From assembly GCA_965249005.1 (NCBI GenBank), contig CBDFLD010000016.1, positions 342,264 to 406,263 on the forward strand: DNA of 64,000 nucleotides. Reading direction: 5' to 3'. This document shows, piece by piece, positions 22,891 to 37,283 of this stretch (its first letter is position 1; each line of letters opens with the position of its first letter). The notes beneath the pieces were generated by a model. The model ran no database searches. It had not been told where the DNA came from and saw only the letters and a list, made by a program, of their open reading frames with translations. Both the position numbers and the translations under genes were made by a program. Origin of the DNA: Acidobacteriota bacterium. GTDB taxonomy: Bacteria > Acidobacteriota > UBA6911.

Positions 22891-23430
22891 ATGTTCTCCG
22901 GAGATTGGCGCCCCGGCAGTTTTGCTAGAGTCCCCACCAATCTCGTGGATACAGAAGTCCTCATCCGGGGCATGGGACCTCCCAAAATGGACCCTCGAAT
23001 GGTAGACGGACTGCTTCGCTTCATAGAGCTGGAGAATCAGGACAAGAAACTCTTGTGCTGCTCGTATGCCATGGTCGCCGCGGTTCGCTTGGCGTTGTGG
23101 TTGCTACCGTTTCGCACGACCCGGGCACTTCTGGACCGCATCCCCCGAAAACGGGAAGACCGGGCAGTCGCGCCCGAAAGACTGAGCTGGGCTGTCCGGA
23201 CATCAAGCCGTCGAGTATTGGGGGCGTCTTGCCTGACCCAGGCTCTTGCACTTCTCGTACTTTTGTCGCGCCAAGGACAGGTAGCACAGCTACGCTTTGG
23301 CGTCTGCCAGGACAGGACTCAAGGTTTTCGGGCTCACGCTTGGCTGATACTCAAGGGGAAGATCTTGATCGGGGAGGAACTCCTGGATCAATACACACCC
23401 ATCCGCATGCTGGGGAGTGAAGTCCGATGA
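22891..23430 (+). CDS. lasso peptide biosynthesis B2 protein (transglutaminase-like Cys protease, leader peptidase)
   Basis: 179 aa. The Cys...His...Asp arrangement CCSYAMVAAVRLAL...GVCQDRTQGFRAHAWLILKGKIL matches the McjB C-terminal/Transglut_core3 consensus (C..SLAL...L...G....L.IGV......F.AHAWVE..G). Confidence 0.85.
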   Translation: MFSGDWRPGSFARVPTNLVDTEVLIRGMGPPKMDPRMVDGLLRFIELENQDKKLLCCSYAMVAAVRLALWLLPFRTTRALLDRIPRKREDRAVAPERLSWAVRTSSRRVLGASCLTQALALLVLLSRQGQVAQLRFGVCQDRTQGFRAHAWLILKGKILIGEELLDQYTPIRMLGSEVR

Positions 23431-25289
23431 GCGGGATCGCCGGTGTCTTGTCCATGGACGAACCGTCGGTCGACCCCGGCATCGTTGCGGTCATGCTGGA
23501 GAGACTCGCGCGCAGGGGGCCTGACGGCCAAGGGCTCTGGACACAAGGCTCACTGTCGCTCGGGCACCGCATGCTAAAGGTAACTCCGGAATCGATGAAC
23601 GAGCATCTTCCATTGGTCAAAGACGAGATCGTTCTTACCTGCGACGCACGAATCGACAACCGCATCGAGTTGATCCGCGGGCTAAGGCTCCGCTCGGCGC
23701 CTGCCGACAGCGAGCTGATTCTGAGAGCCTATCAGGAGTGGGGAGTTCGTTGCCCAGAGAAGCTCCGGGGAGACTTTGCGTTTGCACTCTGGGACATAAA
23801 GAAGAGATGTTTCTTCGCCGCGCGAGATCGGATTGGGATAAAGCCCCTGTACTACGTATTGAATTCGAAGACCTTCGGCGTGGCCTCCGAAATATCCCCT
23901 TTGTTCGAAATCCCGAACGTTGCAAAAAGGCCCGACGTGGATTCTCTGAACGAATTCCTGGACCTCACGGTTGTGCCGGCGGACCGGACGCTCTATGACG
24001 GATTACGCCGGCTTCCGCCCGGACATACTCTGGTCCTGCAAGGCGGTCGAATGAGGCTGGATCGCTACTGGGCGCCAAATCCTCAGCTGGAGATGCGCCA
24101 GCCCAGCCTGTCGCAACATGCGGAGGAGTTTCGCGATCTCTTCTCAGAGGCAGTTGCGGCACAGATGCGAACATCGTCTGGGGTGGGGTGTCTGCTGAGC
24201 GGAGGTCTCGATTCATCCTCTGTTCTTTGCGTGGCAGCGGATGCGGCACCGGCTTCCGAGGCGCCGGCCGCATTCTCGATGATCTTCGATTCACTCGGCT
24301 GCGACGAGCGGGAGTTCATCCAAGAGGTGACGCGAAAGACCGACGTTCCGAGCTATGCGGCCGCCGTGGACGGGGCCGAGTCGTCGACGCTGCTCCAGAA
24401 ATACTCCTCGATGTGTCCGGACTGGCCTGTTCGCGGATTCTGCCCTACCGCTATCTGGCCGTTGATGGAACTTGCGCGCAAGGGTGGAACACGCGTCATG
24501 CTCACGGGACACGGCGGGGATCATGTCGCGGAAGGCAACCTGTCATCCCTGACGGATCTCATGAGGACAGGTCACGTGTCGGAGCTCTTGAGACAATTGC
24601 AGCCCTTTCGCTACGCACCCTCAGTGTGGATGGAATTCGTCATCAAACCGCTTCTGCCAAGGAGCTTCAAGAACCTGGCTCGGTGGCTGCTTCGCGCCGA
24701 AACAACCACCCTGCGCCAAAGCACCCTGCGTGAAAGCACCCTGCGCCAAAGCACCCTGCGCCAAAGCACCCTGCGCAAAAGATCGAATAGAGCGTTAGAG
24801 GGAGAGCGATCCGATCCATGGACACGGAACGGGAGCCACTTTGCGCACCAAGAGGCCCTGGCCCTGTTGTCGCCGAGTACGAGCCTGTGGCTCGATGGTT
24901 ATTGGGATGTTCTGGGCAGCCTATTTGGGATGGAGTTCCGGCACCCCTTTTTCGACTCTCGACTCATCGAGTACCTCCTGACGATTCCTCCGCAAGAGAA
25001 ACTCTGGGGAGGACAGACCAAGGTCCTCTTGCGAGAAGGAATGGATGGAATTCTCCCCGAACAAGTGCGTAACCGAACCGGAAAAGCGGAATTTTCACCT
25101 CTCGTAGAACACCAGCTCAAGCGCCTACCGTCACCTGCCATACGATCTCTTCGCCTGGCGCAGGACGGCTTTGTCAACCGAGAAAGACTTGCAACACTCA
25201 ACGGCGGATCGAAGCCTGGCCAGAGCAACAGCATCTCGCTATGGCCGGTTCTGTGTTTGGACGCCTGGTATGAAGCCAACTTCAATTGA
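23427..25289 (+). CDS. lasso peptide cyclase C (asparagine synthetase B homolog, macrolactam synthetase)
   Basis: 620 aa. It has an AsnB-like N-terminal domain but starts MSGIAG, with Ser where the glutaminase nucleophile Cys2 would be. The PP-loop is LLSGGLDSSSV. Its ATGA start overlaps the B2 stop. It contains the coding repeat (STLRQ)x5. Confidence 0.85.
   Translation: MSGIAGVLSMDEPSVDPGIVAVMLERLARRGPDGQGLWTQGSLSLGHRMLKVTPESMNEHLPLVKDEIVLTCDARIDNRIELIRGLRLRSAPADSELILRAYQEWGVRCPEKLRGDFAFALWDIKKRCFFAARDRIGIKPLYYVLNSKTFGVASEISPLFEIPNVAKRPDVDSLNEFLDLTVVPADRTLYDGLRRLPPGHTLVLQGGRMRLDRYWAPNPQLEMRQPSLSQHAEEFRDLFSEAVAAQMRTSSGVGCLLSGGLDSSSVLCVAADAAPASEAPAAFSMIFDSLGCDEREFIQEVTRKTDVPSYAAAVDGAESSTLLQKYSSMCPDWPVRGFCPTAIWPLMELARKGGTRVMLTGHGGDHVAEGNLSSLTDLMRTGHVSELLRQLQPFRYAPSVWMEFVIKPLLPRSFKNLARWLLRAETTTLRQSTLRESTLRQSTLRQSTLRKRSNRALEGERSDPWTRNGSHFAHQEALALLSPSTSLWLDGYWDVLGSLFGMEFRHPFFDSRLIEYLLTIPPQEKLWGGQTKVLLREGMDGILPEQVRNRTGKAEFSPLVEHQLKRLPSPAIRSLRLAQDGFVNRERLATLNGGSKPGQSNSISLWPVLCLDAWYEANFN
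24707..24781 (+). repeat. 15-bp tandem repeat x5 (caccctgcgccaaag) inside the cyclase gene, encoding TLRQSTLRESTLRQSTLRQSTLRK
   Basis: There are five consecutive 15-mers with 0-2 mismatches each. The repeat is in frame. Confidence 0.85.
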
Positions 25290-25308
25290 AACAAGGAGCG
25301 AATCACCC

Positions 25309-25488
25309 ATGGAAAAGCAAAACCCTAAGGATATTACGGTAGAGGAACAAGAAAAGACCAGTCCGTCTCAGCAGAAGGAATACACGACTCCACAGCTGAC
25401 AGAATACGGAAAAGTCGCCCAGGTCACCGGTGGACGTCCGGGCACGACGCGTGACTTCGGCGGGACTTCTCCAGCCTTCCCCGGATAG
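25309..25488 (+). CDS. lasso peptide precursor (A): a 41-aa leader plus the 18-aa core GRPGTTRDFGGTSPAFPG
   Basis: 59 aa: MEKQNPKDITVEEQEKTSPSQQKEYTTPQLTEYGKVAQVTG|GRPGTTRDFGGTSPAFPG. The RBS aaggag lies 10 nt upstream. The leader matches the YxxPxLx3Gx5TxG consensus exactly (Y25, P28, L30, G34, T40 at position -2). The core begins with Gly1 and has Asp8 as the ring acceptor, followed by bulky Phe9 and Phe16 as candidate plug residues. Confidence 0.85.
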   Translation: MEKQNPKDITVEEQEKTSPSQQKEYTTPQLTEYGKVAQVTGGRPGTTRDFGGTSPAFPG

Positions 25489-25507
25489 CGCCGGAGTTTG
25501 CCGACAC

Positions 25508-26410
25508 GTGATCGCAAAGCTAATCCGGAAAAAACGCCAGGCGTACTGGGCCTCGCTTGAGAGTGATCTGCCCCTAGGAACCCTTCCCGTTGGAGCCTCT
25601 GATCTGAGCACAACGGTCCGGATCCGAAGAACGGAGCACTCCAGACCGGCCCAAGGCACATTGGACCGCATGGAATGCTTCGTACAAGGGAGGCACCTCC
25701 TCGCCACGGGAAAGAGCGATCGCTGTCTCACAATCGATGGCGTCGGAGAGTTCTTTCTCGGCCAGGGTATGCAAGAGATCCAGTACCGTCACTTCCCGGG
25801 CGGCACCTCCAAGTTGATCGGCTACTGGCTTCTCCACTCCGTTCTACCCTTCCACCTTTTCTCCCAACGTAGTTTGGAGTTTCTTCATGCCAGCGCGGTT
25901 GCGATCGGAAGATTGTCGGCGGCATTCTTGGCGCCCTCTCATGGTGGGAAGTCCACACTTGCGGAGTACTTCGTGCGGAGGGGCCACCCACTAATCACTG
26001 ATGACAAGCTGGGAATACTGCAGTCCAACGGACAGTACCTGGCTGTGCCGGGAGTTCCCTTTCTTCGTCCCTATCGGAGATCCGAGGACCTGGGGTATCG
26101 CATCGAGAACTTTGCACGGGAGCCTCTTCCGCTTGGAACCTTGTACGTACTCCAAGCCAAGGATCCCGAAGCTCCGATCAAGATCAGGGAACATTCCCCT
26201 GCCGAGGCATCATGGGCCTTGACACAAAACTGGGAGTTTCGAATCGCGTCTAGAATCAAGGAGCGTTTCGAATACTTCGCCGACCTGGTGGCATGCACAA
26301 GGGTATGCAGCATCGAAATCCCGCGAGACCCAGCCCGGTTGCCCCAAGTCTACACCGCCGTTTGCCAAGACCTGGACGGATTGAAACAGCCTTCTGCTCA
26401 AGCCATCTGA
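25508..26410 (+). CDS. HPr kinase/phosphorylase C-terminal-domain homolog (lasso-peptide Ser/Thr kinase, PadeK-like)
   Basis: HASAVAIGRLSAAFLAPSHGGKSTLAEYFVRRGHPLITDDKLGIL matches the HprK P-loop block (H.gv.v.G.gvLI.G.SG.GKSetAleLv.RGHrLvaDD). A GTG start at 25508 follows a GGAG; the alternative ATG start is at 25670. Confidence 0.75.
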   Translation: MIAKLIRKKRQAYWASLESDLPLGTLPVGASDLSTTVRIRRTEHSRPAQGTLDRMECFVQGRHLLATGKSDRCLTIDGVGEFFLGQGMQEIQYRHFPGGTSKLIGYWLLHSVLPFHLFSQRSLEFLHASAVAIGRLSAAFLAPSHGGKSTLAEYFVRRGHPLITDDKLGILQSNGQYLAVPGVPFLRPYRRSEDLGYRIENFAREPLPLGTLYVLQAKDPEAPIKIREHSPAEASWALTQNWEFRIASRIKERFEYFADLVACTRVCSIEIPRDPARLPQVYTAVCQDLDGLKQPSAQAI

Positions 26411-26465
26411 GCTCATTTCGTCCAAGAAGGGAATCCTTTACCGTCCACTCTGAACAGGAGCTGCA

Positions 26466-26765
26466 ATGTCACCGAATCTCGAATCCAGAGTTGAAATCGC
26501 ACCGGAGATTGTCTACCAAAAAGTCGGCGAGGAAACCGTATTCCTGAACCTTCACACCGGCTTCTACTACGGTCTCGACTCAGTAGGAAGTCGCTTCTGG
26601 GAATTGCTGTCGGATCAGAGGGCTCCGATGCTGAGCGAGGTTCTCGAGGCAATCACCCGAGAATATGATGCTCCCACCGACAGGATCCAGATGGACATTC
26701 TGGAACTGGTGGAAAACCTTCATGCCAAAGGGCTGGTCACGCTGCCGACAGAGGCCGACTCGTAA
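26466..26765 (+). CDS. lasso peptide biosynthesis B1 protein (PqqD-family RRE, leader-binding)
   Basis: 99 aa. EIVYQKVGEETVFLNLHTGFYYGLDSVGSRFWELLSDQ...EVLEAITREYDAPTDRIQMDILELVENLHAKGLV is a canonical PqqD fold signature. The RBS is aggag. Confidence 0.85.
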   Translation: MSPNLESRVEIAPEIVYQKVGEETVFLNLHTGFYYGLDSVGSRFWELLSDQRAPMLSEVLEAITREYDAPTDRIQMDILELVENLHAKGLVTLPTEADS

Positions 26766-26769
26766 ACAA

Positions 26770-27456
26770 ATGAATATTCTCAATCGCGAAACGGTCCTGA
26801 AGCGCTGCTCAGAGCTGCGTATCCGCCTCGATCCAGGCAACCGCCTTCAAATATCGAACGACCGTCATCGGATCGAATGTCGGGGACAGGGACTTTCGAT
26901 CCTCGAGGTCTTCGCTCACCCGACGAGCGTCGGCGAGGCGATCCAGAAGCTGGGCACGAACCTCCCGGGTAGCCAGGCATTCGTAGACCTTGTCAACATG
27001 ATCATGGAGCTCCACCAGGCCGGAATCCTGGAATCGATCGATGGACGAACTTCGCCCCCGGATCCCGAGCCCGCCGGATTTGGCGCACCGCAGATCCACG
27101 TCCAGATGCTCAACGACCGGGAGCGAACTGCCAAGTACATCCAAGCCATCCGCGAGGTTGTCCGAGAAGGCGATGTCGTGGTCGAGATCGGCACCGGCAC
27201 GGGAGTGCTATCGGTGGCAGCAGCCCAAGCGGGCGCACGGCATGTCTATACAATTGAGGAAACCGGGATCGCAGATGGTGCGGAAGCCGTATTTGCGGCA
27301 AACAATCTGCAGAATCAGATTACGCTGGTACGCGGAAGATCCACCCAGGTACAGATACCCGAACGAGCGGATGTCCTGGTCAGTGAGGTAATCGGAAACG
27401 AGCCTCTGGCTGAAAAGGTCGTCCAGTATACACTGGATGCGCGCACTAGGCCTTAG
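26770..27456 (+). pseudogene. 5' part of an RRE-like/PRMT-like (protein arginine methyltransferase fold) methyltransferase gene, interrupted by an IS1380-like insertion
   Basis: The ATG lies 5 nt after the B1 stop. The N-terminal ~90 aa are PqqD/RRE-like (LRIRLDPGNRLQISNDRHRIECRGQGLSILEVFAHPTSVGEAIQKL). Motif I is VVVEIGTGTGVLSVAAAQAGARHVYTIEE, and the double-E loop is VLVSEVIGNEP. The ORF ends ...DARTRP* exactly where the IS begins. Confidence 0.7.
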
Positions 27457-29302
27457 TCCAGCGTGATTTTTTGCATGAGGAGGAAGAAAAGCCCTGGAAC
27501 GTGCGCCGTTACGGGATAAAATGCGTTTGATATATTTACAAGACATCCCGAAAGGAGCACATTCCAGGTGAATAAAAGAAACCACAGAATCCTCCTCCGA
27601 GACAAGCAAAATCTTACACGCCGGTTGGAAAGAAATCAGTTTGAGGACCGGTCCGATCCTATGTTCAAGGACTCCAACACCTACTACGAGATCGCCGAGA
27701 GAACGCGCGCCATCGGATCTGGTGGTATCGGAGCCATTCACAAGCTCGTGTGTAAGCTTGGATTGGACAAAGATATCAACAGAAACATCGTTTTGCTCAA
27801 GTACCACTTTCCTTACTGGGAATCCGATCATGTACTGAACATCGCATACAACGTCTTGTCGGGTGGAACCTGTCTCGAAGATATCGAGCGGTTGCGCCAG
27901 GATGAGACCTACATGAACGGACTGGGAGCCGAGAGGATTCCGGATCCCACGACGGCTGGAGATTTCCTCCGTCGTTTCGATGAGGATTGGATCTTCGGAC
28001 TTCAGGAAACCATCAATGAAACCCGAACCAAGGTGTGGAAGTTGCAGGATGCTTCCTTCCGGAAGGAGGCCATCATCGACGTGGACGGGACCGTCGCCGG
28101 AACCTTGGGGGAATGCAAGGAAGGAATGGACATTGCCTACAACGGGATCTGGGGTTACGCACCGTTGATCGTGACCTTGGCCAATACGAATGAGGTCCTC
28201 TATCTGATGAATCGGCCGGGCAACCGTCCCTCTTCCGACGGAGCGGCCGAGTGGATGGACCGGGCAATCGATCTGGTGTCGTCGGTGTTTACGAAGGTCT
28301 GGCTTCGGGGCGACACGGATTTCTCGCTGACGAGAAACTTCGATCGCTGGGACGAGCGGGTTGGTTTTGTCTTTGGTTATGACGCCAAGCCGAACCTGGT
28401 CGGGATGGCCGATGCCCTGCCGGAGAGACAATGGAAACCGCTCGAGCGGCCTCCTCGTTATGAGGTCAAGAGCGAAGAACGGCGCCGTCCGGAAAACGTC
28501 AAAGAACAAGTAATCAAGGAGAGAGAATTCAAGAACATCCGCCTGCAGAGCGAGCAGGTCGCCGAGTTTGACTATCGTCCCGGACACTGTAAGAAAACCT
28601 ATCGCATGGTTGTGGTTCGGAAGAACCTCACGATCGAAAAGGGGGAGCACCGGCTGTTTGATGAGGTCCGGTACTTCTTCTACATCACCAACGATCGGGA
28701 GATGACGATGGGAGAAGTGGTCCTTTTTGCCAACGATCGCTGCAACCAGGAAAACGTCATCGGTCAGCTCAAGAGTGGAGTGAACGCCTTGAGGATGCCT
28801 TCGGACAGTCTGGTATCGAACTGGGCCTACATGGTCATCGCATCGCTGGCGTGGAATCTGAAGGCCTGGTATGGCCTGGTGACGCAGGCGCCGACAGTAC
28901 GTCGTGATATCTTGAGGATGGAGTTCAAACGCTTCCTGGTGAACTTTGTGCAAATACCCTGTCAGATTGTAAGAACCGGTCGTCGCCTCGTTTACAGGAT
29001 ATTGGCCTATAGCAAGCATCTCGAAACCTTTTTGGCGACGTTCGACTATATCAGGCAACTCAGGTTTACTTGAAGGCGCCTCGCCGGCGGGTGAGCCCGT
29101 ACCCCCGGCGGAGCAAGAGTGGCGGGCGAAAGGAAGGGCATAACAGAGACAAACAAGATCAAGTGATCCAGACAACCAATGGAAGGTTTGTCTCTTGTGT
29201 TTCTCTTTGCTTTCCCTGTTACGCACAAGGAGCTGAAATCCACGAGATATTCGGAAAAGGCAAACGATTTTCCGAGCGAGCTCATACCTCGCTTATTTTG
29301 GG
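27451..29302 (+). mobile_element. IS1380-like (IS4-superfamily DDE) insertion sequence, about 1.85 kb, inserted into the methyltransferase gene
   Basis: It is flanked by the 6-bp direct repeat ACTAGG (27445-27450 and 29303-29308). Deleting 27451-29308 joins the two methyltransferase fragments in frame. The imperfect terminal inverted repeats start CC (ccttagtccagcg / RC cccaaaataagcg). It contains a single 501-aa transposase ORF. Confidence 0.7.
27568..29073 (+). CDS. IS1380-family DDE transposase (full length)
   Basis: 501 aa. The blocks are DVDGTVAGTLGECKEGMDIAYNGIWGYAPLIV (D...E..YNG.....PL) and the C-terminal NDRCNQENVIGQLKSGVNALRMPSDSLVSNWAYMVIASLAWNL, as in IS1380-type transposases. 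Confidence 0.8.
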   Translation: MNKRNHRILLRDKQNLTRRLERNQFEDRSDPMFKDSNTYYEIAERTRAIGSGGIGAIHKLVCKLGLDKDINRNIVLLKYHFPYWESDHVLNIAYNVLSGGTCLEDIERLRQDETYMNGLGAERIPDPTTAGDFLRRFDEDWIFGLQETINETRTKVWKLQDASFRKEAIIDVDGTVAGTLGECKEGMDIAYNGIWGYAPLIVTLANTNEVLYLMNRPGNRPSSDGAAEWMDRAIDLVSSVFTKVWLRGDTDFSLTRNFDRWDERVGFVFGYDAKPNLVGMADALPERQWKPLERPPRYEVKSEERRRPENVKEQVIKEREFKNIRLQSEQVAEFDYRPGHCKKTYRMVVVRKNLTIEKGEHRLFDEVRYFFYITNDREMTMGEVVLFANDRCNQENVIGQLKSGVNALRMPSDSLVSNWAYMVIASLAWNLKAWYGLVTQAPTVRRDILRMEFKRFLVNFVQIPCQIVRTGRRLVYRILAYSKHLETFLATFDYIRQLRFT

Positions 29303-29836
29303 ACTAGGTTCCTCAGAGACAATGCAAGGTTTGTGCCCAATCGGCTGGACGTTTATGGTTTGCCCGTCGTCGTGACCGAGGAGCAGCTGGCGAGGCACCT
29401 GTTCACGGAGACAACAGCAAAGCAGTGGCAGGATTGGTACGGAATAAGATTCCAGCCACTCACAGAACTCTCCCGAAATTCGCCTCATCCATGTTTCATT
29501 CGGCCACGGGACGCACGCCGATGGCAGAGCCTGAGTGCGCCAATCTTGTTGTCGAGCTATGACCTGGCGGAGACAGCGACTCCAGTCGTCCAGAACTCCG
29601 CCGGCAGCGTTGCCACCGCGCAGGGAGAGTGCAACGGATTGCTCGTGTTCTTCGAAGTACAGCTCGGACCTACAACCCGTCTCTCGACTCACCCGGAACA
29701 CGCCGGGGAAGCCAGTTCGTGGTATTCGCCCCTCTGGACTTTACCCGAGCCCATCTCACTTCACAGAGGAGATCGATTCGAAGTCCTCTACAAACATGAC
29801 GGCGACATGGGCCGTGTATGGGTTCGACGTTCCTAG
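29303..29836 (+). pseudogene. 3' part of the interrupted PRMT-like methyltransferase (C-terminal beta-barrel with THW-like loop)
   Basis: Read in frame from the right-hand ACTAGG: TRFLRDNARFVPNRLDVYGLPVV...SWYSPLWTLPEPISLHRGDRFEV. This parallels PRMT ...[21 protein letters not shown]...[22 protein letters not shown]. Confidence 0.7.
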
Positions 29837-29856
29837 ACACATTGTGCGGGCACTAG

Positions 29857-31059
29857 GTGAGAAACGCGATCTTGCAACCTGAACAAGACGTCCTGCTCTG
29901 CTGCGCACGCAGTGCGCTCGATACGGGGAGCCGATTACGGCTCGCGAGTCTGCTCCGAAATGTAGTGGATTGGGATTATCTATTTCGCACCTCGCAGCGT
30001 CACGGTCTACTTCTATTGCTCCACAAGCATTTGATCGCCTGCGGAAGCACTGCGATTCCACCATCAGTCCTGCAGCGGATCAAAGACCACTTCCACCGAA
30101 ATGCGGCGCGCAACCTTCACATGACAGCCGAGCTATGTCGCGTCTTGGACTACCTGGAAGGCCACGGCGTCAGTGCCCTTCCATGGAAGGGTCCGGCACT
30201 GTCCGCATCCCTGTACGAAGACCTGACCGCACGGCAATATGACGACCTGGACGTACTGATTCGGGTCGAGGAGGTACCACGCGCTTTGCAACTGCTCCAA
30301 CGAATCGGATATCAGCCCCAATTCAGCCTCGGCGGCGCAGAAGAAGAAGCCTATCTCAGATCCAAATGCGAGTACGCGCTGGTGGAGCCACAAAAAGCCG
30401 TGGTTCTGGAAATACACTGGAGGATCGTTCCCAGGTACTTTTCCATCGATCTGGACATCGCTCCCCTCTGGGAACGGACGGACGCAATCACCCTGGGGAA
30501 CTCCAGAGTCCAGACACTCAAGAATGAAGATCTGATGATTCTTCTTGCAATTCACGGCGCATCGCACCTCTGGGATCGAGTTGGCTGGATCTGCGATCTC
30601 TCCGAGCTCCTTGCCCCGGCACACTCGTTGGACTGGGACTGGATTCTAAGGGAAACGAAGCGTCTCGGCTGCCGGCGGATCTTGATGTTGGGACTGAATC
30701 TGGCCAGTCAACTGCTAGGACAACAAATTCCGGACCAAATCGAAGGACATGTTCAGGAGCGATCGGCGACCCGGCTTGCCGAGACCGCCCGGCGTCGTCT
30801 TTTTCGAGACCACTGGGAGCAGCCCGGAATCGTCGAAGTCAACTATTTCCTGGTTCGGTCTCGCGAGCGATGGATGGATCGGGTCTTGTTCTGTATCCGC
30901 CTTGCGACGACAACCTCACCCGAAGACTGGGCCTTCTTGCGGCTCCCGAGGCTCTTGTTCCCCCTCTATGTTTTCGTTCGCCCCTTTCGATTGTGCATCA
31001 AATACTTTTCTTCCTACTGGCGGCAATCCGGATGGGGAACGGACGGTTCGAATGCGTGA
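29857..31059 (+). CDS. NTP_transf_5-type nucleotidyltransferase, an accessory enzyme associated with the lasso cluster
   Basis: 400 aa. VLLCCARSALDTGSRLRLASLLRNVVDWDYLFRTSQRHGLLLLLHKHL...LPWKGPALSASLYEDLTARQYDDLDVLI matches the 'uncharacterised nucleotidyltransferase' family that recurs in lasso BGCs. The stop overlaps the ABC exporter start. Confidence 0.7.
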   Translation: MRNAILQPEQDVLLCCARSALDTGSRLRLASLLRNVVDWDYLFRTSQRHGLLLLLHKHLIACGSTAIPPSVLQRIKDHFHRNAARNLHMTAELCRVLDYLEGHGVSALPWKGPALSASLYEDLTARQYDDLDVLIRVEEVPRALQLLQRIGYQPQFSLGGAEEEAYLRSKCEYALVEPQKAVVLEIHWRIVPRYFSIDLDIAPLWERTDAITLGNSRVQTLKNEDLMILLAIHGASHLWDRVGWICDLSELLAPAHSLDWDWILRETKRLGCRRILMLGLNLASQLLGQQIPDQIEGHVQERSATRLAETARRRLFRDHWEQPGIVEVNYFLVRSRERWMDRVLFCIRLATTTSPEDWAFLRLPRLLFPLYVFVRPFRLCIKYFSSYWRQSGWGTDGSNA

Positions 31060-33013
31060 TCCTCTCTTCGAGAAATATCTTACAGCAGTCGTCGAGATCC
31101 TATCATGGAAGGTGGTGCTCGCCGTCGTATTGATGGGCCTCGTGAGTCTGAGCGAAGGTATAGGCCTCATGCTGCTGATTCCCTTACTGCAGCAGACCGG
31201 ACTCGACGTCTACCAGGGATCCCTGGGGACGGTTGCGCGTTTCTTATCGAGGGCTTTCGAATTCGTGCATCTCGAAGCTCGCTTGCCAACCGTGCTGGGC
31301 TTCTACTTGACGGTCGCGGTCTTGATCGGCTGTCTATCTCGATGGGAATCCATACTCAAGTTTCAACTGGTTTACCGTTTTGTCTCTGCCTTGCGCCTCC
31401 GCCTCTATGACGCCGTTGGCCGAACCAGCTGGGAGTTCTTTGCGCGATTGCGGTCGTCCTCCATCGCGCACGTACTGACCACCGAAGTGGAACGAGTCGG
31501 AGCCGCCACTTTTCATTTGATGCAACTCGTCTCGCTGGCAGCCATTTCCCTGACGTACATCGGTTTTGCCTTTGCGCTATCCTGGGGCATGACCGCAGTG
31601 GTTTTTGTTGCCGGGATTCTCCTGCTATTGGCCCAGAGACGACAGCTTGTCGTCGCACGAGCCGCCGGCAGGGACACGTCCGAGGAAACCAGGGGGCTTT
31701 TCGCCGCGATTTCGGAGCATTTGAGCGGCATGAAGACCGCGAGGTGTCATGGTCTTGATCTCCAGCTGGCTGAGTCCTTTTCAGCGCAGACCTCGAAGGT
31801 GAAGGTAGCATCCCTCCGTTCGGTCTTCAATCAAGCAGATACCAAGTTCCGGTTGGATCTTGGACACACCTTGATTCTGGGTGCAATCCTTTACGCCTCC
31901 ATCGAACTGGTCCAAATTGCAGCCGCGGAAGTCCTTCTGCTGCTATACCTTTACGCACGCCTTATGCCCAGACTGTCCGGAGTTCTTCAAAGCTACCAAG
32001 GCTTTATGAATCTGTTGCCAGCATACGCCGCCGTTTCAGAGCTGGAGGAAGAATGTGTCGCAGCCCCCGTGGTTCGAACGAGTCACGCCCAAGATATCGA
32101 GCTCAGAGAGGGAATTCACTTAAAGGGAGTATCGTTCCAGCATGATCGCCCCGTGCTCGAAGATCTGACCCTGTCCGTCGAGGCAGGCCGAGTGACTGCC
32201 ATCGTGGGACCCTCGGGAGCGGGTAAGAGTACCATTGCCGAGCTCGTAATCGGATTGATCCAACCGCATCGCGGTTCCGTATGGGTCGACAATACCCCTC
32301 TTGCCCCCGAACACTTGTCGAGTTGGCGAAGGCAGATCGGCTATGTTTCCCAGGACGGCTTCCTGTTTCACGATACCGTCCGCGCAAACCTGCTGTGGGC
32401 CAATCCACAGGCTACAGCCGAACAAATCAAGCGTGCGCTGTGCATGGCCTCGGCAGGATTCGTGGAACGACTACCGGAGCGGTTGGACACCATCGTCGGC
32501 GACCGCGGAATCCTACTCTCTGCCGGGGAAAAACAGCGCCTCGCGATAGCGCGTGCCTTGATCCGTGAGCCCTCACTCCTGATCTTGGACGAGGCAACCA
32601 GCCAGCTGGACTCCGAAAACGAAGAGAACGTCCTGAACGCCATGGACCAGCTCCGAGGTTACACAACGATATTGACCATCGGACACCGTCCCAGCACAGT
32701 GCACAGAGCCGACACGATCCATATCCTGGATGCCGGCACCATCATAGAGTCCGGCCCATGGAATGAGCTGACAAAACGGGTTGGTGGCCGCTTCCCGATC
32801 CTCTCCTTGGCCCACGGAGTGGAGGCGGATCTAGACGGCCAAGCGCCACCCGCGCGCAGCGCTTCGGAGATCGAAGGCCACGGTTCAGGACACGGGCCGC
32901 TGACCGGCACTTCCGTTTCGCGACGCCTCGACCCAGTCGCGAATTCCAATGAGGGCCACCGGGATAACGACGGGAAAGGCCAGAAACAGGGTTCGGCCGG
33001 GATTGCCCCATAG
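31052..33013 (+). CDS. ABC exporter (fused TMD-NBD, McjD-like lasso peptide export/immunity protein D)
   Basis: It has six transmembrane helices. Walker A is GPSGAGKST, the signature motif is LSAGEKQRLAIARAL, Walker B is LLILDEAT and the H-loop is TIGHR. The last ~60 aa (a Gly/His-rich tail) may be read-through, because a convergent membrane-protein gene overlaps it. Confidence 0.8.
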   Translation: MRDPLFEKYLTAVVEILSWKVVLAVVLMGLVSLSEGIGLMLLIPLLQQTGLDVYQGSLGTVARFLSRAFEFVHLEARLPTVLGFYLTVAVLIGCLSRWESILKFQLVYRFVSALRLRLYDAVGRTSWEFFARLRSSSIAHVLTTEVERVGAATFHLMQLVSLAAISLTYIGFAFALSWGMTAVVFVAGILLLLAQRRQLVVARAAGRDTSEETRGLFAAISEHLSGMKTARCHGLDLQLAESFSAQTSKVKVASLRSVFNQADTKFRLDLGHTLILGAILYASIELVQIAAAEVLLLLYLYARLMPRLSGVLQSYQGFMNLLPAYAAVSELEEECVAAPVVRTSHAQDIELREGIHLKGVSFQHDRPVLEDLTLSVEAGRVTAIVGPSGAGKSTIAELVIGLIQPHRGSVWVDNTPLAPEHLSSWRRQIGYVSQDGFLFHDTVRANLLWANPQATAEQIKRALCMASAGFVERLPERLDTIVGDRGILLSAGEKQRLAIARALIREPSLLILDEATSQLDSENEENVLNAMDQLRGYTTILTIGHRPSTVHRADTIHILDAGTIIESGPWNELTKRVGGRFPILSLAHGVEADLDGQAPPARSASEIEGHGSGHGPLTGTSVSRRLDPVANSNEGHRDNDGKGQKQGSAGIAP

Positions 33014-33907
33014 GAAGATGACAGACAAGGCCAGAATCACGAGGAGCCAGAGCCAGTTCTTCAAGATCGTCGGCTTTTCGCTGAAAACGATGGCATACAG
33101 AGCAGGAAACCAGAAAAAACCAAATGAGGAGAACCAATCCAGAGCACCGTTGGGTGTCAACATCGATCGGATCTGAGAGAACGCCTGCCCTACCAACGAC
33201 AAATTGAAGAACGTGTCTTCCGAAAAGGGATCGATGACAAAACGGTAGAACAGATAGAGGATCGTTGCGGGAAGGAGCCACACCGAATAGAGCCATTTTC
33301 GCCGAAAGGAAAGCTCGGAGAGCCACAGCAGAGGCCAAAGGAACAGAGCCGTCTCCTTCATCACGAGTCCGACGGCAAAGCAGCCGACCAGGAGCCATGG
33401 GCGGTCCTTCAGGATAGCCAAGGCGCCGAGAAGCAAAAAAAGGAAAGCCGACGGATCCACCATGGGCGCACCCCCCTGCTGGAGTACGACACGACTCGTC
33501 AGGAATATGGTCACGCCGAGCAGAGAAAGCCAGGGAGCCTCAAAGAAGTGAGAAAGGTAGATAAAGAAAACGACGCCCGCCGACGTTAAAAATAATAGGT
33601 TGACGAGGGCAAAATGAATATGAGCACGAACAAACCGTGTGGGTTCTCGCCGCAGAAGACGCTCGATGGAGTCCGGCACCAGCTGAGCCAGCCAAATCGT
33701 GCCCATTCTATATCGTCTCTGGTTCTCAACAGACTCGCCGTAGTAAAGGCTCACATAATCCCTGGCGTCGGAAAGCCCCCCCAGGTTGTCGACGCTGAGG
33801 GTGTTTATGCTCACAAGGACGGTCGAAAGGCTGATATTGAAAGCGAAAACGGCGGCGACAGTGAGCAGGGTCCCTTTCGAGCTCAGCGATCTACGGGATA
33901 TCTTCAT
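32885..33907 (-). CDS. hypothetical polytopic integral membrane protein
   Basis: About 340 aa from MKISRRSLSS, with at least 8 hydrophobic helices and no recognisable catalytic motif. It is convergent with the ABC exporter. Confidence 0.4.
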   Translation of the reverse strand: MKISRRSLSSKGTLLTVAAVFAFNISLSTVLVSINTLSVDNLGGLSDARDYVSLYYGESVENQRRYRMGTIWLAQLVPDSIERLLRREPTRFVRAHIHFALVNLLFLTSAGVVFFIYLSHFFEAPWLSLLGVTIFLTSRVVLQQGGAPMVDPSAFLFLLLGALAILKDRPWLLVGCFAVGLVMKETALFLWPLLWLSELSFRRKWLYSVWLLPATILYLFYRFVIDPFSEDTFFNLSLVGQAFSQIRSMLTPNGALDWFSSFGFFWFPALYAIVFSEKPTILKNWLWLLVILALSVIFLWGNPGRTLFLAFPVVIPVALIGIRDWVEASRNGSAGQRPVS

Positions 33908-33958
33908 AGCGGCATCCTCGCGCTTGGAATGAGGATCGATCCGCAGGGATCGAAGCCA

Positions 33959-35782
33959 ATGACAATATACAAGATCCGGGGTCATCGAGAGAAACTGCTT
34001 TTCCCCATAGCCCGAACACCCCGCGCGAAACTTGCTCGCCGAATAGCAAGATGGATCACGGCGACGTCGGCCGCTGCAACCTTAATGGCTCCGGTTTTAC
34101 CCTCGGCACCCGCAACCCAAGACATCCAAGAAACGCGCCACCGGATTTCGGCCGTGCAGGACGATCAAGTATGGATTGAAGGTGGGTTGCTCGACGGATT
34201 GCGAGAAGGAATGGAGGGCTCCGTATTCTACGAAATACTTGTCTTGGGAAAGAAGAAAAGGATTGTGCCTGCGCAGGTTCAACTCATCCGCGTCGAGGAT
34301 GGACAATCGATCGGTCGCTTGATCGAAACAACGGGAATAGCCAACGTCGGATACCATACCGCCTTCCGCCCTGAGCCGGTTCATGAACTCTTGCCGCTCT
34401 TTCTCGCTCGGGCCACGCGAGCCCTCGAGGCGCGAGAGTACAGGCTGGCCCGTCGCTTCTACTCCCGGATTCTAGAAGCACTTCCAAACGATCCCTACGC
34501 CACCCAAATGATGCAACAAACCCGCGTGCATCTGGAAGAAGAGGCAGCACTGGCCCGGGAGCGAAGAAACGCCCAGTATTACAAACAGGTGGCGCGATCG
34601 TTTTTGGCCTCCAGCAACAGCGACTCCGTCGTGCTGGCCTTGCAGTATCTCGACAAGGTGATTGCGGTGTTACCTGAGGATGCCGAGGCCATACGAATGT
34701 CCCAAGAAGCGCAGGCACTCTTGCGGGATCTTGGCGGCAACACAGCCGAGTCCTCCCCGGGAAATCCACAGATCGAGATCACCGCGGGTCACGAGACCCC
34801 AGATGCCTCGACGATGGGAGCAGCACTCCCCGGTCATCCTCCCGACAAACAGAGTGTGCCGCGCGGAGAACAGACGTTGGGAGCATCCATCCTGGGCGTG
34901 CATACGCTAGCTGATGACAAGACGACCTCCGTCATGCAGAGACAGGCACACACCGGGACCGCGCAGCCGGCCGGCAGGCAAGCAGCGGAAACCCCTTCGG
35001 AAACAGAATTCGACCAAGGGTTGACGACGGAAGTGTCAGCTGCGGCCAAAGAGGGAAGTCGCGAGACGTCCCCGGAAGGGATGGTCTTCATCGACGCTGG
35101 AGACACTCCGATAGGCACGGATCTGAAATCGACTCCGTTCTACAATGAAACCCCACGACAGACGATGTGGCTCGATGCCTTCTACATCGATCGCAACGAG
35201 GTCACAAACGAAGAATACAAGAAGTTTTGCGATGATACGCGTCGAACGCAGCCATCTTACTTTGTCACCGGTAGCTATCCAGCGGGTGCCGCTAAGCTTC
35301 CGGTAGTGATGGTTAGCTGGGTCGATGCAGTCGCGTACGCGCACTGGGTGGGGAAAAGGCTCCCCTCGGAGTTCGAATGGGAAAAGGCCGCAAGCGGCAC
35401 CGAAGGCAGGCGCTGGCCCTGGGGAAGCACCTGGAATCCAACCCGACCGAATACCAGAGAGACCGGTGACCGGGTCCGGGAGGTCGGATCCCGTCCGGGC
35501 GACACGAGCCTGTACGGCTTGACGGATATGGCCGGAAATGTCTCAGAATGGACGGCGGATTCGTACCTACCCTACCCCGGCAATTCGCATCACGAGGAAG
35601 AATATGGCGAAAAATTCAGAGTCTTGCGAGGGGGGTCCGTCAATGTGAGCAAGGAATTTGCTCGTTGTCAATTCCGGGCCCGCCTGCCCGAAGGTTTTCG
35701 CTCCCGCGATCTGGGTTTCCGCTGTGCGCTTTCTGCCACGACCGGAACCACCGAAGCGAAAGACCTGGCTAAGTATCCCTGA
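33959..35782 (+). CDS. FGE-sulfatase/SUMF1-domain protein (formylglycine-generating enzyme superfamily) with an N-terminal TPR-like region
   Basis: The C-terminal ~260 aa read WLDAFYIDRNEVTNEEYKKF...WVGKRLPSEFEWEKAA...GNVSEWTAD...RVLRGGS, which are FGE-domain hallmarks. The likely start is MTIYKIRG at 33959; the ORF is open from 33614. Confidence 0.65.
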   Translation: MTIYKIRGHREKLLFPIARTPRAKLARRIARWITATSAAATLMAPVLPSAPATQDIQETRHRISAVQDDQVWIEGGLLDGLREGMEGSVFYEILVLGKKKRIVPAQVQLIRVEDGQSIGRLIETTGIANVGYHTAFRPEPVHELLPLFLARATRALEAREYRLARRFYSRILEALPNDPYATQMMQQTRVHLEEEAALARERRNAQYYKQVARSFLASSNSDSVVLALQYLDKVIAVLPEDAEAIRMSQEAQALLRDLGGNTAESSPGNPQIEITAGHETPDASTMGAALPGHPPDKQSVPRGEQTLGASILGVHTLADDKTTSVMQRQAHTGTAQPAGRQAAETPSETEFDQGLTTEVSAAAKEGSRETSPEGMVFIDAGDTPIGTDLKSTPFYNETPRQTMWLDAFYIDRNEVTNEEYKKFCDDTRRTQPSYFVTGSYPAGAAKLPVVMVSWVDAVAYAHWVGKRLPSEFEWEKAASGTEGRRWPWGSTWNPTRPNTRETGDRVREVGSRPGDTSLYGLTDMAGNVSEWTADSYLPYPGNSHHEEEYGEKFRVLRGGSVNVSKEFARCQFRARLPEGFRSRDLGFRCALSATTGTTEAKDLAKYP

Positions 35783-35835: not shown

Positions 35836-37283
35836 ATGGCCGAGTCAATCCCATTTTCAGTTGAAATTGGATAGCGGCTCCCGTGGTATTCACGCAATTC
35901 GTTCCTCCACGGCTTTTGAAAAGCGGGCTTTTAAGGAACGACGTAACCTCGGTAGGTGGCGATAGCCACGGACCTTCCTGAGTCTCGGCTCGATCTCGAG
36001 CAATGCCGTAGCTACCCAACGATGTAATTGGTTGCTGTTTTTCCAGTAATCCACTTTGTCGGTTCTTTGTCCAAGCTGCGCATTGATGGACTCAAGACAA
36101 TTCGTAGTAGAGAAACTTTCCCGGAGTTCCTCAGCCAGGCCCAACCGGTGAAGGGTGAGAGTCTCTTCGAAACCCTCATCCAAGCTGGCTGCCGCTGACT
36201 GGTTCAGCAGCAATAGTTCTTTTCGGACCCTTAGAAGCGCTTTTTCTGCCTCTTTCAGGTTTGGCTTTTGATAGGCATCCTGCAATCGTTTGCGAAAGGT
36301 TCCCTGTTTGCTCTTGGGTAAGTAGCACAATACATTTTCACGCTTGTGCCATCGGCAGCGCTGCACGACCGCCCGGTTGCCGAATACCGCCTGGACGGCT
36401 TTTCGCAATCCTTTGGACCCATCGATAACGCACATCAGGCCCTTGTCATGGCAAAGCCCTCTTTGTATTAGCCCTCGGAGAAAGGCTATACACACTCGTT
36501 CATTTTCGGTACTGGCCTGCAGGAACCCCAAGATGATCTTCTCACCCTCGAGGGTCACTCCCAATCCAATCAGGATTTGCTCCGATGCAAAGCTTTTGCC
36601 GTCCAGAAAGAGAGCAACAAAATCGTATCCTGCAAGAGATCGTTCCTGCAGCTCCTTCAGTTTTCGAGCTGTCACTTGGATGGTACGGCGCGAGATGCTT
36701 GATGCTGACATGCCAAAAGCCTCCGGAACGGCCTCAGCGCACTCCCGATAATTCCGACAGGATAATCCGTTGATCACCTTCTTCAAAAGGCCCTCGTCCA
36801 TATTCCTGGGTTGCTGCAACTGCCTATAGGTTCTCAACGGCGCTTCACGACCTTGGTTTGTGTCCCGGACTCGAGGAACACGGACTGGAATCTTCTGATC
36901 TGTGAGATACACTGAACCCCTTTGCGATCCCCATCGATGAAGGTTGCAATCACCGCCGGCTCGGCTATAACGCTTCCCGGCGAGCTCGTTGACTTCATCT
37001 TCAAGGCTGTCCTGGACGGCTCTCAATCCGAGCGGTATCAATGCTTGGATCAGCTCGATACGTGCATCAAGTTCATTGACCTGATCGTTGATTTCCGGAA
37101 CCCGAGCCCCGCCTGAGGATCGTTTTTGCTTCGATGTGATGCTGTTTGGTAGAATCTTCTTCATAGTGGCTCCTTGAGAATTGGTTGACTTCGTTTTCGC
37201 TAAAAACAAAAATCTACCACTCTTGGAGCCGCTTTCCTTTCATTGAATTTCAACTAACAATAGCACTCACTCGTTATGGCCAT
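35836..37283 (-). mobile_element. IS256-family insertion sequence, about 1.45 kb
   Basis: The imperfect terminal inverted repeats are left atggcc...gttgaaattggatagcggctcc (35836-35881) and right ggagccgc...aatttcaac...ggccat (37225-37283; its reverse complement begins gttgaaatt). It contains a mutator-type transposase. I could not find a clean target-site duplication. Confidence 0.65.
35890..37209 (-). CDS. IS256-family (mutator-type) transposase
   Basis: YDFVALFLDGKSF...ILIGLGVTLEGEKIILGF...ERVCIAFLRGLIQRGL...LMCVIDGSKGLRKAVQAVFGNRAVVQRCRWHKRENVL matches the Transposase_mut DDE consensus. Confidence 0.9.
   Translation of the reverse strand: MFLAKTKSTNSQGATMKKILPNSITSKQKRSSGGARVPEINDQVNELDARIELIQALIPLGLRAVQDSLEDEVNELAGKRYSRAGGDCNLHRWGSQRGSVYLTDQKIPVRVPRVRDTNQGREAPLRTYRQLQQPRNMDEGLLKKVINGLSCRNYRECAEAVPEAFGMSASSISRRTIQVTARKLKELQERSLAGYDFVALFLDGKSFASEQILIGLGVTLEGEKIILGFLQASTENERVCIAFLRGLIQRGLCHDKGLMCVIDGSKGLRKAVQAVFGNRAVVQRCRWHKRENVLCYLPKSKQGTFRKRLQDAYQKPNLKEAEKALLRVRKELLLLNQSAAASLDEGFEETLTLHRLGLAEELRESFSTTNCLESINAQLGQRTDKVDYWKNSNQLHRWVATALLEIEPRLRKVRGYRHLPRLRRSLKARFSKAVEERIA

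Follow-up and report, generated by a model that had tools for sequence, protein, structure and literature searches.

A lasso-peptide gene cluster of an Acidobacteriota genome with kinase, nucleotidyltransferase and RRE-fused PRMT-fold methyltransferase genes

Positions 22891–33013 of the stretch of Acidobacteriota DNA analysed here (64,000 nucleotides of contig CBDFLD010000016.1; hereafter the window) carry eight genes which, judged from their sequences, almost certainly form a genuine lasso-peptide biosynthetic gene cluster (BGC) with kinase, nucleotidyltransferase and methyltransferase tailoring genes, the methyltransferase (MT) being a fusion of an RRE, the recognition element of peptides that are made ribosomally and modified after translation (RiPPs), to a body resembling the protein arginine methyltransferases (PRMTs). 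Our explanation of the whole, to which we give a probability of roughly 60%, is a class II lasso operon with RRE-guided arginine methylation and further tailoring by the kinase (K) and the nucleotidyltransferase (N). The lasso core and kinase-bearing clusters are known; what appears to be new here is a recurrent lasso subfamily with an RRE-fused PRMT-fold MT that is related to TsaG of thioamitide biosynthesis.

The lasso operon and its precursor

On the map of open reading frames (ORFs), the cluster is a co-directional run on the + strand in the order B2-C-A-K-B1-MT-N-D, with junctions from B2/C to N/D of −4, 19, 19, 55, 4, 20 and −8 nt. An earlier reading of this DNA made from its letters (the sequence-only reading) had proposed these eight genes and an insertion sequence (IS) on this strand, and the ORF map, Pfam and NCBIfam confirmed the placement of all of them; its description of tight packing stands too, while the overlapping start and stop codons that it reported are confined to the two pairs with negative spacing. 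The leader peptidase B2 (22891–23430, +), a transglutaminase-like Cys protease, matched PF13471 (75 bits) and NF033537 lasso_biosyn_B2 (85 bits, cutoff 33), and the relatives P0155 and P0156 are annotated in a 147-aa form, which corresponds to an alternative start at 22987. The Asn-synthetase-like lasso macrolactam cyclase C (23427–25289, +) matched Asn_synthase (PF00733, 176 bits) and GATase_7 (88 bits), its top NCBIfam family being the lasso isopeptide cyclase NF033535 at 453 bits, under the 525-bit 'exception' cutoff. B1 (26466–26765, +), predicted to be a stand-alone RRE and PqqD-like leader-binding protein, matched PF05402 PqqD (56.6 bits), and the lasso PqqD families NF033536 and NF033530 under their cutoffs. 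All three lasso-family assignments proposed from the letters were borne out by these matches. The last gene, D (31052–33013, +), encodes a half-size ATP-binding cassette (ABC) exporter of 653 aa with a transmembrane and a nucleotide-binding domain (ABC_membrane 49 bits; ABC_tran 113 bits), and its start agrees with the database entry P0431, as does that of K (25508) with the public gene call. A 15-nt unit repeated 5.0 times in the linker of C (24707–24781), encoding (STLRQ/E)x5, is a side observation; five copies are also present in P0126 of a relative.

The precursor A (25309–25488, +; 59 aa) lies 8 nt downstream of an AGGAG ribosome-binding site and matched the lasso leader family NF033521 at 19.2 bits (cutoff 19) and NF033528 at E = 5e-5. 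Its sequence is MEKQNPKDITVEEQEKTSPSQQKEYTTPQLTEYGKVAQVTG followed by GRPGTTRDFGGTSPAFPG, i.e. a 41-aa leader (25309–25431) that ends in YTTPQLTEYGKVAQVTG and fits the motif YxxPxLx3Gx5Tx, and then a core of 18 residues (25432–25485) with Gly at position 1 and Asp at position 8. No Cys is present in the core, and the product is therefore predicted to be of class II; on its sequence the cluster is a split-B lasso BGC, with a threaded lariat as the predicted product. By homology, the precursor's YxxPxL leader would be bound by B1 and by the MT's own RRE, B2 would cut after Thr(−2)-Gly(−1) and so remove the leader, C would join Gly1 to Asp8 into an 18-residue lasso with the ring GRPGTTRD and the tail FGGTSPAFPG, and D would export the product.

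The only relatives of the precursor that were recovered are its alleles P0124 and P0158 on two other contigs, in which the core is unchanged and the leader carries 5–6 substitutions, all outside YxxPxL except for one V-to-I change; between the same genomes B2 is ∼94% and UvrC 98% identical. Degenerate core-coding DNA found no match in a JGI metagenome scan. From these comparisons, the peptide looks lineage-specific and its core looks to be under constraint.

The methyltransferase family and its proposed acceptor

The MT gene lies in two parts on either side of an IS, and its product is described here as joined after removal of the insert. The 5′ part (26770–27449, +) encodes an RRE-fold N-terminal domain (residues 1–90) and the Rossmann fold that binds S-adenosylmethionine (SAM), up to the double-E loop; the 3′ part (29308–29836, +) encodes a PRMT β-barrel with a THW-like loop (STHP...SSW; PRMT5_C 30.8 bits, PRMT_C 21 bits). 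Besides PRMT5_C and PRMT_C, Pfam matched PrmA (PF06325), and PrmA was rejected as the identity of the enzyme, with 33 bits against the 183-bit cutoff of the true PrmA equivalog. A profile of 25 MT homologues matched the structures of PRMT1, 3, 6, 7, 8 and CARM1 with E = 1e-45 to 1e-33 over residues 100–397, and an AlphaFold model (pLDDT 87) matched PRMT6, PRMT3 and PRMT7 in Foldseek (E = 1e-22; TM 0.7–0.8 on the target). The 25 homologues conserve the PRMT signatures, namely H..ML.D..RT, motif I VVEIGTGTG, the double-E loop SEVIGNEPLAE and a THP..W loop; the two glutamates of the double-E loop, E206 and E215, are conserved at ≥90%, with the E-x8-E spacing of PRMT1. In a fold search, the N-terminal domain was an RRE fold, a three-strand/three-helix winged helix like PqqD, which upheld the RRE-like and PRMT-like description already given from the letters. 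Comparisons by sequence had returned a weak match to Pfam PqqD (E = 0.2), and the fold search took their place. With the RRE-like domain alone as a profile, 419 representatives were collected among 1.84 billion proteins, and in each full-length protein the domain was N-terminal in a polypeptide of ∼400 aa. The enzyme shares motif I, the double-E loop, the THW-like loop and the β-barrel with the eukaryotic PRMTs (PRMT1/3/6/7, CARM1), and differs from them in carrying an RRE in place of their SH3, zinc-finger or PH modules, in residing in a bacterial RiPP operon, and in an identity of 21–24%.

Searching 5.8 billion proteins yielded more than 940 MT homologues with 41–50% identity over the full length, and relatives were located in at least 564 GTDB species stretches from Cyanobacteria, Chloroflexota, Acidobacteriota, Gemmatimonadota, Actinomycetota, Thermodesulfobacteriota, Brocadiaceae and others. 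For genomic context, 83 MT loci were fetched and queried by tblastn with the window proteins, which placed a lasso cyclase in 28 of them, D in 23, B1 in 19, K in 13, N in 12 and B2 in 10; the combination of MT with K (and N, and D) and lasso genes recurred in at least 12 of the 83, in many phyla. The sequence-only reading had not recognised this architecture from any characterised cluster; a characterised example is indeed absent from the searchable literature, whereas the recurrence shows that the architecture is not unique. When the MTs were arranged in a neighbour-joining tree, the window grouped with L001, L004–L012 and L014, and within this clade all loci with enough flank carry lasso genes and K, usually with N and/or D, while loci cut short by the end of a contig show K or D only. 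Gene order varies in the clade, being MT-B1-B2-A-C-K-N in L001 (by precomputed Pfam annotation), B1-B2-C-A-K-MT-D in L008 and B1-C-A-K-MT...D-N in L010, and several further branches of the tree also show lasso linkage. Taken by sequence and context, the MT-kinase-nucleotidyltransferase lasso architecture is a recurrent, widespread subfamily in uncultured bacteria. One of the sampled loci (L021, 481–5471), from a metagenome-assembled genome (MAG) labelled Nitrosotalea sp., combines an MT homologue with genes for a lasso cyclase, for B2 and for a kinase and with a candidate precursor; either the contig was binned wrongly, or this is a lasso cluster of an archaeon, which would be rare. Another, large clade, comprising L060 (9342–12034) and about 20 other Solirubrobacterales/Actinomycetota loci (L053–L083), keeps the double-E loop, but genes of the lasso or thioamitide type are missing from the surrounding 10 kb; the genes conserved beside the MT encode a DUF6325 protein and a GNAT acetyltransferase.

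It is highly improbable, in our estimate, that the MT is a general bacterial protein methyltransferase, acting for example on a ribosomal substrate, which has lasso genes as neighbours by chance. Homologues are publicly named 50S ribosomal protein L11 methyltransferase, and some family members lie among metabolic genes. Against this stand the N-terminal RRE fold, which is typical of RiPP enzymes, the position of the gene inside the operon only 4 nt after B1, the score far below that of true PrmA equivalogs, and the recurrence of the family both in lasso clusters of many phyla and in thioamitide clusters, where gene deletion shows that it tailors a peptide.

The thioamitide connection came from a clade of cultured actinomycetes in the MT tree (L047, L065, L070, L074 and L082; in Streptomyces sp. 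AC550_RSS872, Nonomuraea fuscirosea, N. maheshkhaliensis, Microbispora siamensis and Streptosporangium sp.), in which the MT gene belongs to a conserved operon of the order APH-HopA1-APH-HFCD flavoprotein-MT-YcaO-TfuA (5929–13339 in L047) and the L047 precursor ends in ...SFISVVVTAATHC. By these signatures the operon is a thioamitide cluster and its MT a TsaG/TvaG orthologue. TsaG has been described as a 'methyltransferase, pfam06325' and, as gene deletion showed, is the enzyme that bis-N-methylates thiostreptamide S4 at its penultimate His (PMC8153245). The window MT is 33–36% identical to the MTs of these clusters over residues 3–399, and so the PRMT-fold enzyme, which the sequence-only reading did not recognise from any characterised cluster, does have a characterised homologue of ∼35% identity, TsaG/TvaG. 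The enzymes of thiostreptamide S4 and thioviridamide have the same family and architecture, i.e. an N-terminal RRE-like domain, a PF06325/PRMT-fold body and a length of ∼400 aa; they differ in their YcaO/TfuA/HFCD context with APH/HopA1 and in a precursor ending in ...HC, whereas the window has lasso genes, a core without His and no thioamitide signature. The active sites differ as well: the thioamitide clade reads TD-I-V-G-N-D-x-L-D-M (TD-x7-DM), in which the second Glu is gone, and has RK instead of RT, whereas all lasso-linked clades and most orphan clades keep SE-x8-E and RT. On these alignments, the RRE-PRMT family separates into a thioamitide clade, which methylates His and whose active site is altered, and lasso-linked clades, whose Arg-binding site is canonical.

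The cores point in the same direction. In a first scan of MT-linked lasso loci, 11 of the 12 cores contained Arg and none contained His, and a looser second scan added further candidate cores, mostly with Arg. The candidate core of a Heliobacteriaceae MAG (L027, 5594–5788; SRSGVGRDGGVGS, SRSGVGRDGGVGSDCTLS) has the pattern xRxGxxRD in common with the window core, and with the window's GRPGTTRDFGGTS it shares xRxGxxRD-x-G..S despite the distance between the phyla. The L027 leader appears to be without the usual Thr at −2. Peptidyl-Arg is favoured as the substrate because the double-E loop and RT are retained and the cores have Arg and no His. The MT would dock on the leader of the linear precursor and, with SAM as the donor, methylate Arg2 and/or Arg7 at a guanidino nitrogen, and methylation would probably precede leader removal, because the RRE of the MT docks on the same leader; most of the reviewed lasso tailoring enzymes act on the linear precursor (PMC8498205). 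We put leader-guided arginine N-methylation of the core by this MT at about even odds, and the extension to the lasso-linked RRE-PRMT clade as leader-dependent peptidyl-arginine N-methyltransferases, from the same alignments, a shade lower.

Several observations weigh against arginine methylation in a lasso context. His rather than Arg is methylated by the one relative of the MT that has been characterised; among the cores, Arg positions are otherwise unconserved; and the candidate core GIPNIPVPDDFETSV of L011 (8164–8337) has no Arg, Lys or His. In addition, for about two-thirds of the MT family members sampled there was no lasso gene in the neighbouring 10 kb, a count that also favours a general methyltransferase, and the N-terminal domain resembles B1 by sequence only weakly (hhalign probability 19%). 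L011 is a Brocadiaceae MAG cluster with MT, D, N, B1 and B2, in which the cyclase match is weak.

Part of these observations would be explained if the MT were a lasso tailoring enzyme with an acceptor other than Arg, such as the N-terminal amine before cyclisation, a Ser/Thr phosphate, the carboxylate of Asp or of the C terminus, or a backbone or other side-chain nitrogen, which we regard as unlikely. It fits the His bis-N-methyltransferase activity known from the thioamitide clusters and the unevenly placed or, in L011, absent Arg, and the co-occurrence of MT with K in many loci makes a phosphate or phospho-sugar acceptor conceivable. It fits poorly with the lasso clade, where, unlike in the His-methylating clade, both double-E glutamates and the RT motif persist, and with the recovered cores, in which His is missing and Arg is present in 11 of the first 12; for a phosphate acceptor in particular, many MT-linked lasso loci are without K. 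Arginine methylation is on this balance the reading that we prefer.

The interrupted gene, the kinase and the nucleotidyltransferase

The insert in the MT gene is an IS1380-family element (27450–29307, +; NF033539, DDE_Tnp_1_4) of 1858 bp including one flanking ACTAGG copy, its termini being uncertain by a few nt, and its transposase ORF (27568–29073, +) matched NF033539 at 297 bits (cutoff 180). The MT frame ends at 27456 and picks up again at 29333, and a 6-nt direct repeat, ACTAGG, stands on either side of the insert (27445–27450 and 29303–29308). The visible inverted repeat of the element is imperfect and ∼9 nt long (CCTTAGTCC / CCTAGTCCC). In-silico removal of the 1858 bp restored a single open frame of 402 codons. 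Public entries identical to the two fragments of the window, P0123 (244 aa) and P0121 (167 aa), are both on a 427,328-bp NCBI/ENA contig, and an intact allele, P0122 (418 aa), is on another contig (353,789 bp); residues 17–418 of P0122, from Met17, are 100% identical to the joined MT, an identity that spans the junction ...LDARTRFLRDNARFVPNRL.... A second intact copy, P0001, with 98% identity, was found on a 2.18-Mb contig. Since excision gives the intact public allele exactly, the insertion is real, recent and strain-specific, and the splitting of the MT by an IS that had been read from the letters was correct; the same reading had called the cluster complete, which holds for the core machinery and not for the interrupted MT. 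An identical transposase was found on 18 contigs, so that the IS is multi-copy in the lineage, with one copy in the window. The left end of the IS had no match in the JGI metagenome scan. Judged from its split gene, a strain with the interrupted MT could at best make an unmethylated product.

K (25508–26410, +; 300 aa) is an HPr-kinase-like P-loop kinase which alone matched Hpr_kinase_C at just E = 0.005, and the HprK-like assignment made from the letters was substantiated at the family level: a 13-member profile of K and 12 homologues from MT/lasso loci matched HPrK/P (1jb1) at E = 2.8e-9 over the P-loop/DD core, and 11 of the 13 members matched PF07475. The HPrK/P catalytic core runs through the family alignment as LHASAV...G.GAGKST...DD and reads LHASAV...GGKST...DD in the window. 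N (29857–31059, +; 400 aa) is a nucleotidyltransferase-fold protein of the NTP_transf_5 family (PF14907, 196 bits, cutoff 31), homologues of which adjoin MT and lasso genes in 12 loci.

Kinase-bearing lasso clusters are known from Firmicutes and Proteobacteria; the characterised lasso kinases act on the linear precursor, phosphorylating its C-terminal Ser, and in pseudomycoidin a nucleotidyltransferase adds a hexose to the phospho-Ser at the C terminus (PMC8498205). The parallel to paeninodin and pseudomycoidin drawn by the sequence-only reading holds for the presence of kinase and nucleotidyltransferase genes and fails at the core, which ends in ...TSPAFPG without the C-terminal Ser used by all characterised lasso kinases; several sister cores from MT-linked lasso loci do end in Ser. 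K is unusual in itself: at about residues 195–205 it lacks a segment of ∼22 aa, and with it a Lys that all the other 12 aligned members have. Both features count against K/N tailoring, and the first weakens the paeninodin/pseudomycoidin comparison. The shortened K is matched without gaps, at 96% identity and equal length, in a relative or sister genome, and fresh decay was therefore rejected as the origin of the deletion; because the short form is conserved ungapped there, it is a lineage trait rather than a fresh lesion. Whether K phosphorylates a Ser/Thr of the precursor we judge to be a toss-up. Since there is no C-terminal Ser, the likeliest sites would be internal, at Ser13 or Thr12, and N may then decorate the phosphate, by analogy with PsmN in pseudomycoidin.

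We class the cluster as working like the paeninodin and pseudomycoidin systems without being a member of either. With the paeninodin type (PadeK, ThcoK, SyanK) it has in common a split-B lasso cluster, an HPr-kinase-like kinase and an ABC exporter, but those kinases act on a C-terminal Ser and those clusters have no PRMT-fold MT, whereas the window K is a shortened variant. With pseudomycoidin (psm of Bacillus pseudomycoides; PsmK and PsmN) it shares a kinase plus a nucleotidyltransferase, N and PsmN being likened by description only, and it differs in phylum, gene order and core, in the phospho-hexose that pseudomycoidin carries on a C-terminal Ser, and in the added MT.

The state of these genes raises the question of whether the cluster in this genome is a decaying or silent remnant that makes no mature modified product, the IS having killed the MT with polar effects on N and D, and K being degenerate. 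This we consider somewhat unlikely. The 1.86-kb IS splits the MT and belongs to a multi-copy element, and it may be polar on N and D, a further count against the tailoring scheme; K lacks its segment and invariant Lys; the core lacks a C-terminal Ser; and no promoter- or terminator-like signal rose above the shuffled expectation. On the other hand, every other ORF is intact, the intact MT allele that equals the joined fragments makes the insertion a recent one, and the shortened K persists in a relative. Furthermore, the core is invariant over three alleles while the leader drifts, a pattern expected under purifying selection, and the IS is co-oriented with the operon, so that read-through is possible. 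A working operon of the class II lasso type, with an MT recently lost in this strain, is the reading that we retain.

Cluster limits and significance

The flanks are unrelated to the cluster. Upstream (1–20771, −) lies an exopolysaccharide locus with a Polysacc_synt_3 flippase (Wzx-like), Poly_export/SLBB (Wza) and a Wzz-GNVR-P-loop tyrosine kinase (Wzc), and downstream are an FGE-sulfatase-domain protein and an IS256-type transposase. An upstream 290-aa ORF, a downstream 366-aa membrane-protein ORF and the FGE-sulfatase protein were tried and rejected as cluster members, none of them recurring beside other MT/lasso loci, with the sole exception of one weak FGE-domain match at a non-lasso locus (L073); the limits 22891–33013 are sound because no immediate flanking ORF recurs beside clusters of the same type. 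The 366-aa ORF (32885–33985) is convergent with D, the 3′ end of which overlaps its own by 129 nt, and had no family match, its exact ORF being absent from the protein collection; D itself ends in a low-complexity C-terminal tail of ∼75 aa. The Mutator/IS256 transposase (35890–37209, −; PF00872 143 bits), 2.9 kb downstream of the cluster, marks together with the IS1380 copy an IS-rich region. A promoter/terminator scan gave sites no more numerous than in shuffled sequence, and a tRNA search found none. The high-GC Gram-negative-like host suggested earlier proved Gram-negative, an Acidobacteriota MAG, with a G+C content of only ∼55% throughout. Among named proteins, those closest to the UvrC encoded in the window come from Acidobacteria/Acidobacteriota MAGs (75–79% identity).

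Among the known lasso methylations, the C-terminal O-methyltransferases of lassomycin/StspM and the aspartimide-forming enzymes of the PIMT type, LihM/TceM, have SAM-dependent tailoring in common with the window MT and differ in belonging to unrelated enzyme families with a different chemistry, carboxyl O-methylation. Side-chain Arg methylation and PRMT-type enzymes are absent from reviews of lasso post-translational modifications (2022), RiPP methyltransferases (2024) and interlocked peptides (2026), and neither methylarginine nor a PRMT/PF06325 enzyme was found for any lasso peptide in the searchable literature, a coverage that excludes subscription-only papers. The cluster may make the first arginine-methylated lasso peptides. 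To our knowledge, bacterial PRMT-type enzymes have hardly any assigned function, the main examples being the free-arginine enzyme SznE and the thioamitide His methyltransferase.

Lasso peptides are prized as scaffolds, and the chemistry available for engineering them broadens with every tailoring reaction that is added. The breadth of the MT family, the split of its active sites and the existence of an intact allele make the Arg-methylation hypothesis directly testable, while a core without a C-terminal Ser beside a conserved shortened kinase questions the current rule of lasso kinase specificity. If arginine is indeed the acceptor, this cluster and dozens like it in Acidobacteriota, Cyanobacteria, Chloroflexota, Thermodesulfobacteriota and others would be the first known to encode RiPPs methylated on an arginine side chain, which in some of them would be accompanied by phosphorylation and phospho-decoration, and the large bacterial PRMT family would gain its first defined biochemical role.

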